NCBI RefSeq assembly: GCF_023734095.1
Contig: NZ_AP024620.1
Location: forward strand, 3,259,570 to 3,283,569
Source: Moorella sp. Hama-1
Lineage (GTDB): Bacteria; Bacillota; DSM-521; Neomoorellales; Neomoorellaceae
Reading direction: 5' to 3'
DNA: 24,000 nucleotides
Shown here: positions 3,303 through 22,972 of the stretch, one piece after another
Layout of the letters: each line of letters starts with the position of its first letter
Numbering within the stretch: the stretch's first letter is position 1
Translations under genes and position numbers: made by a program
The notes under the pieces: generated by a model
Told to the model about the DNA's origin: nothing
Databases searched by the model: none
Seen by the model: the letters and a program-made list of their open reading frames with translations, nothing else

Positions 3303-6797
<3,495 letters not shown>

Positions 6798-10464: not shown

Positions 10465-10845
10465 TTATTTAATCTCGACGGTGGCCCCGGCTTCTTCCAG
10501 TTTGGCTTTAATACTTTCGGCCTCTTCTTTGCTGACCTTTTCTTTAACCGGCTTGGGGGCTTCGTCAACCAGGGCCTTGGCTTCCTTCAAGCCCAGGGCG
10601 GTAATCTCGCGGACGACCTTGATGACGTTGATCTTCTTATCGCCGGCCGCCTTCAAGATGACATCAAATTCGGTCTGCTCTTCTGCCGGGGCTTCCGCCG
10701 GGGCAGCAGCACCCGGGGCTACGGCCATGGCCACAGGGGCAGCGGCACTGACGCCGAATTCCTCCTCCAGGGCCTTGACCAGCTCGGATAGTTCCAGAAC
10801 CGTCAAGCCTTTGACGGCTTCGATGATCTCCTGCACCTTGCTCAT
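10465..10845 (-). CDS. rplL: 50S ribosomal protein L7/L12
   Basis: [37 protein letters not shown]...[14 protein letters not shown]; 126 aa. ATG at 10845-10843, behind AAAGGAGGAATTTCCATT. The 194-aa track ORF (to 11049) is a spurious extension into the upstream repeat element. Confidence 0.97.
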
Positions 10846-10856
10846 AATGGAAATTC

Positions 10857-10871
10857 CTCCTTTGAAAATAG
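10857..10871. repeat. Left copy of the 15-nt perfect direct repeat flanking element copy A
   Basis: Plus strand CTCCTTTGAAAATAG, identical to 11212-11226. On the minus strand it reads CTATTTTCAAAGGAG and provides the rplL Shine-Dalgarno. Confidence 0.9.
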
Positions 10872-11211
10872 ACTTCTGCCAAAAATGGTTACAACTTACA
10901 GCAACCGCTGCGGGGCTGGCGGTACAGGTCTCCAGGCTCCGTGGTTCTCGGCGAGCAAACTTAGCGCTCAGCCTTCCTCGGCGGCGGGGGTGGCTCGGCT
11001 GTATCCCTTTGAATAAACGCAGCGGGGAGCGGAACTCTTCGTTCCTCAACTTACGTTACGATCCCCATCCCGTTCACCGCCGCCTCGGTGCGGCTTCGCT
11101 GAGTTTGCTCTGCGCCTCAAACCAAGTCGCCTTCCGCCTGTACTCGCCAGCCCCTTCCCTCAGCCTACATTTTCATTGTTCGCTGGCGGGGGCGTCAGCC
11201 CCCATGAGGGG
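10872..11211. repeat. Unclassified non-coding repeat element, copy A (conserved core about 10872-11175)
   Basis: Homologous to 22412-22701 in the same orientation. A 60-nt block is identical (10912-10971 = 22454-22513), and there are further long identical blocks such as CGATCCCCATCCCGTTCACCGCCGCCTCG. No ORF with a start codon and RBS is present. The strand of any RNA product is unknown, but the element must be co-transcribed on the minus strand within the rplJL mRNA. Confidence 0.85.
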
Positions 11212-11226
11212 CTCCTTTGAAAATAG
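11212..11226. repeat. Right copy of the 15-nt perfect direct repeat flanking element copy A
   Basis: Plus strand CTCCTTTGAAAATAG, identical to 10857-10871. It starts 8 nt beyond the rplJ stop codon. Confidence 0.9.
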
Positions 11227-11233
11227 CGTTCTA

Positions 11234-11764
11234 CTAAGCGGCTTCTTCTTTTTGTTTGCGGATGGCCTCCAGGGCGTAGACCAGGTTGCGGATGTTCCCG
11301 GCCAGGACGTTGACCAGGCCGGCCAGGGGTGCCTGGAAGCCGCCAACCACCCGTCCAAGGAGCTGTTCGCGGGATGGTAGATCCGCCAGGGCTTTGATGT
11401 CACCGGCGCTGATGACCTTACCCTGCAGGACGCCGGCTTTGATCTGGAAGGTCTTGCTGTTACGCACTACCTCATTCAAAATTTTAGCCGGAGCTACCGG
11501 ATCAGTGGCGCTGAAGGCGATAGCTGTGGGACCCTCCAGGTACGGTTCCAAGCCCTCCAGGCCCAGTTCCCGGGCTGCCCGGGCCGTCAGGGTATTTTTG
11601 ACTACTTTGAATTCCACCCCGGCTTCCCGCAGCTGCCGGCGGAGTTTGGTCATCTCCGCTACATTGAGCCCCCGGTAATCCGCCAGGAGCGAGACTATGG
11701 AGGCGCCCAACTTTTCTTTTATTTCATTGGTAGCTTCTACCTTGGCTGCGCGCTGTTTGTTCAC
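11234..11764 (-). CDS. rplJ: 50S ribosomal protein L10
   Basis: 176-aa [62 protein letters not shown].... GTG start (plus-strand cac at 11762-11764) behind GACAGGAGGTGGTAAC. Confidence 0.97.
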
Positions 11765-11934
11765 GTTACCACCTCCTGTCTGCTAAAAAAATTTAAGCCC
11801 CCGCAGACAGGCGAGGGCAATATGCAAGCAACCGTTGGGAACGGTTAACTCCCTTCACCTCGGCAGGCAATTTTAAGCCCCTGGGCACCTGCTGTCTCCG
11901 GTAAAAACGCTATTTAGCTAGGCAGTTTGCCGGC
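11765..11934 (-). promoter_or_regulatory. Probable ribosomal protein L10 leader (autoregulatory 5' UTR of rplJL)
   Basis: A 170-nt structured spacer between rplA and rplJ, where Firmicute L10 leaders sit. On the minus strand it contains two GGGGCTTAAA(A/T)TT motifs, an AACCGTT-CCC-AACGGTT hairpin, and a 9-bp helix CCTGTCTGC...GCAGACAGG. The 3' arm of that helix overlaps the rplJ SD. Assigned from position and motifs only; no covariance model was run. Confidence 0.5.
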
Positions 11935-14132: not shown

Positions 14133-14250
14133 TGTCTGTTTGTTGACGCATTCGGGCCAGATAGGGCCTGAAGTTATATTCTACGCCTGCGGGGCTCTTT
14201 CCTGCTTGTCCGTCTATATTATTGCCGGCTGCCTGGAAATTAACTCCTGC

Positions 14251-14316
14251 GAAATGAGATATGAGATGTGGGAGGTGAGAAGTGGGATTCCTGTAGAAAC
14301 TGGCTGCGCCAGTTTT
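14251..14316. repeat. Heptamer-array/hairpin repeat, half copy (family shared with 16790-16898)
   Basis: Six tandem degenerate heptamers GAAATGA GATATGA GATGTGG GAGGTGA GAAGTGG GATTCCT (14251-14292), followed by the hairpin AAACTGGC-TGC-GCCAGTTT (14297-14315). There is no matching inverted right arm. Confidence 0.7.
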
Positions 14317-14419
14317 AGATTAAAGCTTGCCTGCCTCTCATTTTTTCCCTTCGTTGGTGGTCCGCCGGTTCGTGGATCGGCCCCAGCACCCATGAATGAC
14401 TTCTAATGCTCCAAGGGGG

Positions 14420-15057: not shown

Positions 15058-15168
15058 TTATATAAAGATAATCAGGCCGATAAGCAACAGGAGAAAAAGA
15101 AAGAGCAGGCCGCCGTCGGCAATAATATCCCGCACTTCTACTTCCGGTAGGCTCTGAACTTCGACCAT
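15058..15168 (-). CDS. Candidate 36-aa peptide with a hydrophobic C-terminal segment
   Basis: Hand translation gives MVEVQSLPEVEVRDIIADGGLLFLFLLLLIGLIIFI, stop TAA. ATG at 15168-15166, six nt after GGAGGGG. Confidence 0.35.
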   Translation of the reverse strand: MVEVQSLPEVEVRDIIADGGLLFLFLLLLIGLIIFI

Positions 15169-15300
15169 GGATATCCCCTCCGAAAATGATTCTTGCGCCC
15201 TTATGGTATTTTATGTCGCTCCTCCGAAACAGGTTACCCTTGCAAATCTATGTCGCCCTGGCTACATTTACGCGGTCAGCGGCCAGGCCGGCCCGAACGA

Positions 15301-16708: not shown

Positions 16709-16784
<76 letters not shown>

Positions 16785-16789
16785 ATATG

Positions 16790-16898
16790 GATATGGGATG
16801 TGAGATGTTAGAGGTGAGATACTTGTTGGAATTGGCTGCGCCAATTCCTATCTTTATAATCCCACTTCTCATATCTCACTTCTCACTTCTCACTTCTC
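16790..16898. repeat. Heptamer-array/hairpin palindromic element filling the tRNA-Tyr/tRNA-fMet spacer
   Basis: The left arm is five heptamers GATATGG GATGTGA GATGTTA GAGGTGA GATACTT (16790-16824). The central perfect hairpin is GGAATTGGC-TGC-GCCAATTCC (16828-16848). The right arm is five inverted heptamers CACTTCT CATATCT CACTTCT CACTTCT CACTTCT (16863-16897). 16795-16821 is complementary to 16872-16898 at 22 of 27 positions, counted by hand. Confidence 0.8.
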
Positions 16899-16901
16899 AA
16901 A

Positions 16902-16987
16902 TGGTGGAGGGGGCTGGATTTGAACCAGCGAAGGCTGCGCCAGCAGATTTACAGTCTGCCCCCTTTGGCCAACTCGGGAACCCCTCC
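16902..16987 (-). tRNA. tRNA-Tyr (anticodon GUA), long variable arm, CCA encoded
   Basis: Minus strand GGAGGGGTTCCCGAGTTGGCCAAAGGGGGCAGACTGTAAATCTGCTGGCGCAGCCTTCGCTGGTTCAAATCCAGCCCCCTCCACCA. The anticodon loop is CTGTAAA and it has a class II variable arm. Confidence 0.92.
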
Positions 16988-21729: not shown

Positions 21730-22405
21730 CCTTTTCGGCCTCCAGTTCTTCAACCCTTTGCTCCAAACGCTGGATTTGGCGTTGCAGGCAGAGGAGCATC
21801 TCCGCCACCGGGTCCGGCAGTTCTTCATGGCGGAGGTCTACGGCACTCACTTCGGCATCGGCAATTTTGCGGCCGTTACGTACCACCACTTTCCCCGGCA
21901 CGCCGACCACGGTGCAGTTGGGTGGTACATCCCTAAGGACGACGGAACCGGCGCCGATCTTGACGTTGTCACCGATGGTGATGTTGCCTAAAACCTTGGC
22001 CCCGGCGCTGATTACTACGTTATTACCAATGGTGGGGTGGCGTTTACCCTTCTCTTTGCCGGTGCCCCCCAGGGTAACCCCCTGGTAAAGGGTAACGTTA
22101 TTGCCCACTTCAGCTGTTTCGCCAATGATGACACCCATACCGTGATCGATAAAGATCCCTTCTCCCAGTTTGGCCCCCGGGTGGATCTCAATACCCGTCA
22201 GGAAGCGATTGATCTGGGAGATAATCCGGGCCAGCAGGATCAGGCCCCGGCGGTAACAGGCATGGGCCAGGCGATGGAGGATCAGGGCATGGAAACCCGG
22301 GTAGCAGAGGATGACCTCCAGGAGGCTGTGGGCCGCCGGATCCCGCTGGAAGACAACTTCAATATCCTTCTTTAACCGCCGCCACAAGGTCTTCATCTCC
22401 TCCAA
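21671..22405 (-). CDS. cysE: Serine O-acetyltransferase
   Basis: [30 protein letters not shown]...[60 protein letters not shown] shows the hexapeptide repeats typical of CysE. The start is ambiguous: TTG at 22405, as in the track, or ATG at 22396. The GGAGGAG purine run abuts the ATG. The 3' end overlaps cysS by 59 nt. Confidence 0.92.
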
Positions 22406-22411
22406 AAATAG

Positions 22412-22701
22412 GGTTCTGGCAAAAATGGATTCTTATGGTAAGCATTTGGCTAGGGGGCTGGCGGTACAGGTCTCCAGGCTCCGTGGTTCTCGGCGAGCAA
22501 ACTTAGCGCTCAGTTGCTTAAGCCGCGGGGGTGGCTTTACATTATTTCATAAGAATAAGCGCAGCGGGGAGCGGAGCTCTTCGTTCCTTAATTTACGTTC
22601 CGATCCCCATCCCGTTCACCGCCGCCTCGCTTCGGCTTCGCGCAAGTATCTAGCGCCTCAAACCCTGTACCGGCCAGCCCCTTCCCTCAGCCTGCATTTC
22701 G
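22412..22701. repeat. Unclassified non-coding repeat element, copy B
   Basis: Homologous to and co-oriented with 10872-11175. It has the identical 60-nt block 22454-22513 and the same inverted-repeat pair (22454-22470 / 22664-22681). It occupies the gap between the T-box terminator and the cysE start codon. Confidence 0.85.
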
Positions 22702-22711
22702 CCGGGCAGGC

Positions 22712-22972
22712 TAAAATAAAAGCCCCCTCTCCGGTCAGGGACGAGGGGTTCTCGTGGTTCCACCCTGGTTGAGGATTGCTCCTCCACTCAACGGGTAATA
22801 ATTTCCCGGGCCGTAACGGGGCCTGCCGGCAGGACCTACTCCCTCAAAAATTTCAGCCCTGCAGCTCCCAGGTGCATTTCAACGCCCGGTGTATCCAGGG
22901 CCACTTCCAGCCGCCGGTGGTCCCTCTCTGGTGATTCCCGGTACGCTTACTCTCCTGTTCCTCGCTATTAAT
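22712..22972 (-). promoter_or_regulatory. T-box riboswitch leader with Cys (UGC) specifier, including its terminator (hairpin 22723-22748 plus U tract)
   Basis: The minus strand shows Stem I elements (AGCGAGGAACAGGAGAGTA, CCAGAGAGGGACC...GGCGGCTGGAAG). The specifier-loop sequence is GAAATGCA, with the UGC codon at 22876-22874. The conserved T-box sequence is AACCAGGGTGGAACCACGAG (22770-22751). The terminator is CCCCTC...GAGGGGG-CTTTTATTTT. A Cys T-box upstream of cysE-cysS is the known Bacillus arrangement. Confidence 0.85.

Follow-up and report, generated by a model that had tools for sequence, protein, structure and literature searches.

The BOX elements of Streptococcus pneumoniae and the BIMEs (bacterial interspersed mosaic elements) of enterobacteria are mosaic, modular intergenic repeats, and BIME/REP (repetitive extragenic palindrome) elements cluster at the 3' ends of genes and are tied to RAYT transposases. 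The Correia elements of Neisseria and the ERIC/IRU elements of enterobacteria are MITEs (transposable elements of the miniature inverted-repeat kind) that are co-transcribed and processed (PMC10969869). Here, we describe a 355-nt non-coding cassette that separates the ribosomal protein genes rplJ and rplL in Moorella sp. Hama-1, within a 24,000-nt stretch of DNA (hereafter the window; assembly GCA_003116935.1, contig BFFN01000009.1). We consider it probable, at roughly 60%, that this cassette is one unit of a Moorella-specific, non-autonomous family of mosaic interspersed repeats, bounded by short sequences that we call tail boxes, moved by recombination at these boxes, and near-neutral.

The window carries a minus-strand gene cluster (ispD-ispF-(T-box)-cysE-cysS ... 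sigH-tRNAs-rpmG-secE-nusG-rplK-rplA-rplJ-rplL-rpoB-rpoC), in which rplJ, encoding ribosomal protein L10 (11234-11764, minus strand; NCBIfam NF000955 equivalog, E = 5.7e-57), is followed by rplL, encoding ribosomal protein L7/L12 (10465-10845, minus strand; TIGR00855 equivalog, E = 6e-50). The spacer from the rplJ stop codon (TAG, 11236-11234) to the rplL start codon (ATG, 10845-10843) is 388 nt long and contains two exact occurrences of CTCCTTTGAAAATAG, at 10857-10871 and 11212-11226. No others occur in the window at up to two mismatches, and the chance expectation is 0.00 matches (100 shuffles). This 15-nt direct repeat is prolonged imperfectly to 21 nt (19/21) or 26 nt (85%), and the 340 nt between its copies, together with one of the copies, constitute the cassette. 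An earlier sequence-only reading of the window had reported both the 388-nt distance and the perfect repeat, which the NCBIfam gene calls and the coordinates confirm. The filled site was seen independently in a metagenome-assembled genome (GCA_030445735.1; 397/400 and 302/302 positions identical) and in Logan contigs from a separate sequencing run (DRR289397), so it is not an assembly artefact. Short-read contigs often break off at or within the element, as is typical of a dispersed repeat.

The same spacer is compact in relatives. In Moorella naiadis (94% L10 identity), it reads TAG-GAGAAGTCTATTTTCAAAGGAGGAACTCTGATT-ATG, that is, 33 nt with a single CTATTTTCAAAGGAG, and in a relative with 97% L10 identity and an identical L12 protein it reads TAG-GAGAAGTCTATTATTAAAGGAGGAAATCTGATT-ATG, likewise 33 nt; the spacer is 20 nt long in Moorella thermoacetica (CATAAGGAGGAATTTACATC) and 29 nt long in Moorella sulfitireducens. 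The rplJ-rplL element is a real insertion/deletion polymorphism. An empty site of 33 nt, with a single repeat expected in orthologous spacers, had been predicted from the Hama-1 sequence; it is found in M. naiadis, which carries just one 15-mer, and these 33-nt sites support the earlier interpretation of an insertion-type event in a compact spacer.

A second copy (c2; the rplL copy is c1) had also been noted in the window, at 22412-22701. It is real, and comparison with M. thermoacetica places the inserted segment at 22412-22710 (minus strand; core, 22454-22680). This copy is 5'-truncated and lies between the terminator of a Cys T-box leader (22734-22971, minus strand; Rfam RF00230, 99.8 bits) and the native tail box and Shine-Dalgarno (SD) sequence of cysE (CTATTTTTGGAGGAG; 22397-22411, minus strand), which are present also in the element-free M. 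thermoacetica. In the latter, the region between the T-box terminator and cysE reads ...TCTTTTATTTT/CCGAAGAG/CTATTTTTTAGGAGGAG...ATG, with 8 nt (CCGAAGAG) in place of the 299 nt of Hama-1 and the native CTATTTTTTAGGAGGAG directly downstream. Thus, both of the empty sites examined (rplJ-rplL and T-box-cysE) already carry one tail box.

Across copies, the tail box follows the consensus (AGAAnnC)TATTTTynnAGGAG, i.e., a T-rich tract followed by GGAGG. The similarity between the left flank of a copy and its own tail ranges from TATTTT only in c2, through ~13 nt in c4, 12/14 in c3, and 15 perfect nucleotides (19/21 when extended) in c1, to 31 perfect nucleotides in c6. The flanking repeat therefore spans ~6 to 31 nt, and its motif is alike at unrelated loci (the T-rich tract plus GGAGG, often preceded by AGAAnnC). 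Because the length of the repeat varies, its sequence is alike at every site, and the box pre-exists at empty sites, the 15-mer is not supported as the transposase-type target-site duplication that had been proposed; its behavior fits that of a shared recombination or attachment (att-like) box. The alternative raised at the same time, a microhomology-mediated duplication, is a better fit for the 5'-truncated c2 and c5.

Copies were found with a translated open reading frame (ORF) probe, a genome-collection scan, and a metagenome scan, and ~157 kb of DNA was examined in all. The genome-collection scan used a 19-mer from the invariant 3' arm against a collection of species representatives, among which the Hama-1 genome is not included, and returned M. 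naiadis only, plus two chance matches. Six full copies are known, five in Hama-1 (at rplL, cysE, an AAA_30 gene, glmM, and glnA) and one in M. naiadis (cmk-plsC). To these can be added a partial and diverged copy from a metagenome assembly of thermoacetica-like character, a number of smaller units, and, in the 97% relative, a partial relative located between rplL and rpoB. The element had no match in plasmid and phage collections (blastn), and viral contigs gave one chance 19-mer without flank similarity. As judged from these matches, the element belongs to a low-copy, Moorella-restricted family of modular repeats.

Aligned units share a plan of four parts, namely a 5' module, a cargo, a pre-tail, and a tail box. 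At rplJ-rplL (all minus strand), the cassette is preceded by a left tail box (11212-11232), which consists of the perfect repeat at 11212-11226 (sense CTATTTTCAAAGGAG) and of imperfect similarity up to 11232, holds a duplicated SD (GGAG), and resembles the c2-type tail AGAACCCTATTTTC of other copies. The 5' module (CCCCTCATGGGGGCTGACGCCCCCGCCAGCGAACAATGAAAATG; 11159-11211) contains overlapping GC hairpins and a conserved CCAGCGAAC box. The cargo (10912-11154; nhmmer E = 6.9e-84) consists of an imperfect palindrome of ~240 nt, bounded by inverted termini (GGGGCTGGCGAGTACAGG / CCTGTACCGCCAGCCCC), which would form a long rod-like hairpin. It is followed by the pre-tail (10872-10911), which includes a weak terminator-like hairpin (10887-10906, 6 bp) and then ATTTTT, and by the right tail box (10856-10877), in which the repeat at 10857-10871 is preceded by AGAAGT and the rplL SD, GGAGG, occupies 10856-10860. 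The right tail box matches the native spacer of M. naiadis over 24 nt.

The 5' module is common to large and small units, with nhmmer profile matches in 13 units, and its hairpin is kept across unit types despite sequence change (86.5% paired, compared with 50-71% in slid controls), with weak covariation. A tRNA-like minihelix ("hairpin + GCCA") was considered for this module and found no tRNA or Rfam match, such that CCAGCGAAC stays a conserved box only. Within the module, a 10-codon mini-ORF (MGADAPASEQ followed by a stop; 11205-11173, minus strand; read from sequence) starts with an ATG 6 nt after the duplicated SD. It had been overlooked in the earlier statement that the element has no ORF with a start codon and ribosome-binding site (RBS), whereas the accompanying statements that it has no transposase and no strong terminator held up in sequence scans. 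The mini-ORF has 10 codons in c1, c3, and c4, 3 in c6, and 14 in c7, and is missing in c2 and c5. Neither the sequence nor the length of the peptide is conserved among copies, and since the frame varies or is missing, the peptide itself is not under selection.

Units differ in cargo. Large units carry the ~240-nt palindrome, small units carry AACTGGCGCAGCCAGTT plus a CCCAC/CTCAC-rich tract, and mini-units carry nearly none. The small units, which combine the 5' module and tail box with this second cargo type, lie at L018 2872-2961 (minus strand), 4795-4884 (plus strand), and 6362-6448 (plus strand), at L020 2976-3065 (minus strand), and in the window at 14244-14412 (minus strand), where the 5' module is degenerate and the tail box reads TCATTTCGCAGGAG. 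Four of these five small units stop ~10 nt before a start codon. Units stack head-to-tail into arrays, e.g., [remnant]-[large]-[small]-glnA. Furthermore, the copies are mosaic, with variants of the 5' arm, loop, junction, and tail assorting independently; for instance, the 5'-arm variant of c2 is the same as that in a copy from another species, and the tail of c5 at glmM (GGTAGAAGTCTATTTTCGGAGGAG) shares 14 nt, AGAAGTCTATTTTC, with the native rplJ-rplL spacer. On the left, c1, c3, c4, c7, and the second unit of locus L022 (L022u2) all have the exact junction GGAG/CCCCTCATG, as do the internal array junctions. Copies c2 and c5 are without the start of the 5' module and are joined to the host DNA at GGGGGCT/GGAGGCT microhomologies.

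The units also obey a rule of position and orientation. Eight of the nine arrays with a readable 3' end stop at most 13 nt before a start codon, which makes their last tail box the source of the SD; the genes behind arrays are rplL, cysE, plsC, AAA_30, glmM, glnA, GATase_2, a small ORF (15168), and an rsmE-like gene. Only the small unit at 14244-14412 departs from this. Every array runs in the same direction as the gene downstream of it. Specifically, c4 and c6 lie ~1 kb apart on opposite strands and each points toward its own gene, which implies that orientation follows the gene and not the direction of replication. The tail box is not a general RBS context, as the starts of rplJ, rplA, rplK, nusG, secE, rpoB, and rpoC show no likeness to it.

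We considered what the element might encode or express. Rfam searches, which covered families such as group I/II introns, ribozymes, HEARO/omega RNA, 6S RNA, ribosomal-protein leaders, and riboswitches, gave no match to the element (gathering threshold for the whole window; E ≤ 10 for 10800-11300; E ≤ 1 for the four-unit locus at L018 2850-4900), so that the earlier suggestion to look for a described RNA family, once carried out, yielded none. The matches in the window are the T-box, tRNAs, and the intact autoregulatory L10 leader of the rplJL operon (11782-11919, minus strand; RF00557, 64.9 bits) only. The RNA of the whole spacer folds at -174.9 kcal/mol (z = -6.2) and the core at about -135 kcal/mol on either strand, with compensatory changes in 0 of the 94 consensus pairs of the core. 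This gives no evidence of a strand-specific RNA structure, and the fold was rejected as support for an RNA gene, since the minimum free energies of the sense and antisense strands are approximately equal and compensatory pairs are absent. Copy c6 has a hammerhead-like CUGAUGAG, which no other copy shares and no model matches, and which was taken as a coincidence.

The antisense strand has a frame that is open through all copies and annotated as "hypothetical proteins" of 129-175 aa (P0001, L018 3001-3462; P0003, L020 3001-3528; P0002, L019 1-392). Among 5.8 billion proteins, this ORF has three matches, all of them element copies. We rejected it as a gene, given that its codon-phase counts (23/14/15) are not significant and its synonymous fraction (0.22, compared with 0.11-0.27 in the other five frames) is unremarkable, none of the frames having a coding-type substitution pattern; the annotated proteins are probably spurious.

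An internal promoter driving rplL was likewise rejected, because no consensus match was found inside the element, which holds only a weak terminator-like hairpin. With the L10 leader intact, no internal promoter, and no strong terminator, rplL is expected to be transcribed through the element, from which we infer that the latter is co-transcribed with rplJ-rplL. The predicted accessibility of the rplL RBS is unchanged by the element, the mean unpaired probability from the SD to the ATG being 0.52 for the filled site, 0.49 for M. naiadis, and 0.54 for the reconstructed empty Hama-1 site. By analogy with Correia elements (PMC10969869), the long duplex would be a plausible RNase III substrate.

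In the explanation we favor, one tail box would already stand at the target, as the T-rich/SD region that precedes a gene, and the cassette would bring the other. A unit would be gained by recombination at the tail box, either through integration of an excised or copied unit or through short-homology copy-in, and lost by recombination between the two flanking tail boxes. Such recombination would produce flanking repeats of variable length and similar sequence, head-to-tail arrays, mosaic copies, and an orientation that follows the gene. As the cassette ends in a tail box with a normally spaced SD, rplL would retain its RBS, and the upstream duplicated SD would be left in front of the short mini-ORF, partly buried in a hairpin. 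The palindrome would fold on itself, leaving the rplL RBS as accessible as in the empty allele. The insertion is thus probably tolerated in an essential operon, as near-neutral selfish DNA, because the cassette ends in an RBS that replaces the one it displaces.

Several points weigh against this explanation. No recombinase, transposase, or autonomous partner was found in the ~157 kb of examined DNA or in the plasmid or phage collections, and 15-31 nt is little homology for recombination of the RecA type, such that a dedicated enzyme may be needed. In at least five units, the left boundary GGAG/CCCCTCATG is precise, which is easier to reconcile with an endonuclease or transposase than with homologous exchange. 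Hardly any variation is seen in the 60-nt 3' arm and the central 28 nt while the copies otherwise differ by 10-20%, which hints at sequence selection or ongoing gene conversion, beyond pure neutrality. The rplJ-rplL polymorphism may have either polarity, given that a precise deletion between boxes in the relatives would yield the same "empty" sites. Finally, the rule of position rests on nine arrays in the ~157 kb.

A more far-reaching proposal is one that we regard as rather unlikely. Moorella may host a hitherto unknown cassette-type mobile system that uses the ribosome-binding region (T-rich tract plus GGAGG) as its attachment site. Non-coding cassettes would be placed directly before start codons, in the orientation of the gene, by a dedicated enzyme (a recombinase of the site-specific or HUH type, or a reverse transcriptase that copies read-through mRNA), with the SD regenerated each time, so that even essential and highly expressed operons such as rplJ-rplL could be colonized and arrays stacked. 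In such a system, the arrangement of mini-ORF, long hairpin, and SD might hand ribosomes across the insertion.

The exact left junction (c1, c3, c4, c7, L022u2, and the internal junctions) also brings to mind a non-autonomous, single-strand HUH-type element (IS200/IS605- or IS91-like), which would insert 3' of GGAG on the coding strand, end in GGAG on its right, and thereby regenerate the SD without a true duplication. The subterminal GC hairpin conserved across unit types with weak covariation, the strictly strand-specific insertion, and the dispensability of terminal inverted repeats would all be in keeping with this, and arrays would follow, as every unit brings a new GGAG. We nonetheless think it unlikely, because no TnpA/TnpB-like gene is found near any copy, the similarity between left flank and tail reaches far beyond GGAG (15-31 nt), an extended tail-like box is already present at both empty sites, c2 and c5 are 5'-truncated and joined at microhomologies, and there is no clear hairpin by the right end, the pre-tail hairpin being weak and non-conserved.

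A different question is whether the long spacer is ancestral in the clade, with the 33-nt sites of the relatives being solo tail-box footprints of precise deletion. The 33-nt spacer of the clade of Hama-1 and M. naiadis exceeds the M. thermoacetica spacer by 13 nt and contains AGAAGTCTATTTTC, which also occurs in the tail of c5; direct repeats of 15-31 nt favor deletion; and a solo tail remnant does exist in the window (15175-15232, minus strand), consisting of a tail box, ~30 nt of pre-tail-like sequence, another tail box, and then the ATG of a small ORF. However, this history demands at least two independent precise losses (in the 97% relative and in M. naiadis) instead of one gain in the Hama-1 lineage. 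Moreover, a crossover in the perfect 15-mer would leave TAGAACG upstream, whereas GAGAAGT is observed, such that the crossover would have to be placed further upstream, in AGAA. We therefore judge an ancestral long spacer to be improbable.

Still less probable, in our view, is a functional cis-acting RNA, either an RNase III processing site or insulating hairpin by which rplL would be uncoupled from rplJ, or a mini-ORF-hairpin-SD arrangement whose ribosome hand-over raises L12. The fold is very stable (z = -6.2), c1, c3, and c4 have the stop codon of the mini-ORF 7 nt ahead of the extended hairpin's base, the 3' arm and center are near-invariant, and the host operon is stoichiometry-sensitive. 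Yet the same site is empty in the closest relatives, whose L12 protein is identical, and the element also precedes the unrelated genes cysE, plsC, glmM, glnA, and AAA_30. Neither compensatory pairs nor strand asymmetry is seen, the mini-ORF is absent in c2 and c5 and not conserved in length elsewhere, and the accessibility of the RBS is unchanged.

A classical MITE, moved in trans by a DDE transposase and with the 15-mer as its target-site duplication, would correspond to the insertion with target-site duplication that the sequence-only reading had put first. The small size (~300-355 nt), the lack of a coding signal, the five copies in Hama-1, the presence/absence polymorphism with empty sites in relatives, the palindrome with inverted termini (GGGGCTGGCGAGTACAGG / CCTGTACCGCCAGCCCC), the flanking direct repeats, and the breaking of short-read assemblies all recall such elements. 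This interpretation is largely refuted by a direct repeat of ~6-31 nt whose sequence is similar at all loci and which is already present at unoccupied sites. The inverted termini bound the ~240-nt core only, leaving the ~55-nt 5' module and ~40-55 nt on the 3' side outside, the direct repeats are set apart from these termini by the 5' module and the ~40-nt pre-tail, and no related insertion sequence was found in the ~157 kb or in the plasmid or phage collections; a MITE is thus very doubtful. RNA-mediated copying, in which host mRNA is copied back where its 3' tail (T-rich plus GGAGG) anneals, would explain why every copy is co-oriented with transcription (including the divergent pair 1 kb apart), why c2 and c5 have lost their 5' ends and show microhomology at the left junction, why repeat length varies, and why the c5 tail at glmM contains 3'-flanking sequence of the rplJ-rplL spacer, but it is the least credible reading, since none of the copies has a linked reverse transcriptase, neither a defined RNA 3' end nor an untemplated tail is present, the equal folding of both strands and the mosaic copies suit DNA recombination, and the core arm on the other strand in the rplL-rpoB element of the 97% relative is a DNA-level rearrangement.

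Some further units and fragments accompany the family. In the 97% relative, a related element lies just after the rplL terminator in the rplL-rpoB spacer (L008 2925-3104; L011-L016), and there is no rplJ-rplL insertion; Hama-1, M. naiadis, and M. thermoacetica have no element in this spacer. Next to its 5' module lies an arm whose match to the Hama-1 core is on the opposite strand (score 81, compared with 38), so that the core is either inverted or symmetrized, and the contigs end inside the element. On the metagenome contig JAALLR010000566.1 (L022 3060-3230, minus strand), two tandem mini-units (5' module plus tail box) precede an rsmE-like gene, the second of which retains only the 3' terminus of the palindrome (CCTGTACCTCCAGCCCCC) and has the look of a derivative in which most of the core is gone. 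In the JAALLR01 assembly, the hairpin AGCCCCTCATGGGGCT stands alone between two convergent genes (L021 5540-5585, minus strand) and looks like an ordinary bidirectional terminator, on account of which the 5' module hairpin may derive from a terminator. At L024 ~4500-5300 (Ga0182018_10013499), the hairpin of the 5' module finds a match by chance in an unrelated GC-rich array of ~90-100-nt repeats, each with GGATCGTTTCG.

Within the small units, the pyrimidine-rich tract has anti-SD-like CACCTCC repeats, which could pair with the adjoining SD. The complete palindromic cargo of a small unit occurs by itself in the window at 16781-16909, between tRNA genes at 16712-16784 and 16905-16987, with arms of ~35 nt (GAGAAGTGAGAAGTGAGATATGAGAAGTGGGAT / ATCTCACCTCTAACATCTCACATCCCATATC) around AATTGGCGCAGCCAATT and with no 5' module or tail box. 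Behind the solo tail remnant, downstream of ychF, lies the small ORF (~15058-15168, minus strand), which is unannotated, has 36 codons, and would encode a hydrophobic peptide (MVEVQSLPEVEVRDIIADGGLLFLFLLLLIGLIIFI followed by a stop). At cysE, the start is ambiguous (22385-22405, minus strand). The annotated ATG, giving 241 aa, directly abuts the SD, and a TTG located 9 nt further downstream stands at a normal distance from the SD and gives 238 aa, the length annotated in Moorella glycerini and M. sulfitireducens; this TTG start would yield MxxRLKxDI, which we take to be the usual CysE N-terminus.

If the rule of position holds genome-wide, selfish DNA in Moorella colonizes the most constrained non-coding positions of a genome, the few nucleotides that separate the SD from neighboring cistrons in essential operons, by bringing a replacement RBS. 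In practical terms, the element breaks short-read assemblies of Moorella and yields spurious antisense "hypothetical protein" annotations, and it lengthens 5' untranslated regions and intercistronic spacers (rplL, cysE, glnA, and glmM) in an industrial acetogen genus. Polymorphisms in the presence of the element can serve as strain markers. At the rplJ-rplL junction, it provides a natural test of how much extra structured RNA is tolerated, L12 being needed in excess over L10.

Among described repeats, BOX and BIME elements resemble the Moorella units in being short non-coding modules of varied number and order that are intergenic, co-transcribed, rich in stable hairpins, lineage-restricted, and without an encoded transposase. 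There is no sequence similarity to them, however, and the Moorella units are bounded by a T-rich plus GGAGG box that doubles as an SD, and share the strict orientation of the downstream gene, whose start codon they adjoin. Compared with REP/BIME in particular, they lack a GTAG-headed REP palindrome and stand head-to-tail upstream of start codons. Correia and ERIC elements are likewise small, ORF-less, palindromic, variably present among strains, and transcribed in operons, with hairpins that are plausible RNase III substrates. Correia elements differ in their fixed TA duplication, their 26-nt terminal inverted repeats at the very ends, and their insertion in either orientation, whereas the repeats around the Moorella units are variable in length, conserved in sequence, and located outside extra modules, and the orientation is fixed. 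A 2024 review text on such MITEs makes no mention of the ribosome-binding site (PMC10969869).

The PATEs (palindrome-associated transposable elements) derived from IS200/IS605 share with the Moorella units a non-autonomous, strand-specific character, and may resemble them in inserting next to a short specific sequence without true duplication and in having a subterminal hairpin; by contrast, no copy has TnpA/TnpB beside it, the flank-tail homology is extended, some copies are 5'-truncated, and the right end has no hairpin. In integrons and other att-bounded cassettes (e.g., pdif modules), units also lie between copies of one box, form head-to-tail arrays of fixed orientation, use a pre-existing target box, and are gained and lost whole. 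Here, the boundaries are GGAG/CCCC (...GGAG/CCCCTCATG...), with no GTTRRRY core or attC fold and no Xer-type site, the cassettes are gene-free, and the arrays stand before many housekeeping genes instead of on one platform, with no integrase nearby. Our literature searches on Moorella repeats, on MITEs, and on MITEs with a Shine-Dalgarno sequence returned no account of the family, and the use of the RBS region as the bounding box, the strict orientation with the downstream gene, and the abutment on the start codon appear to be undescribed in that literature. By this comparison, the Moorella family would stand nearest to BOX, BIME, Correia, and ERIC in its design and nearest to the att-bounded cassettes of integrons in its logic.

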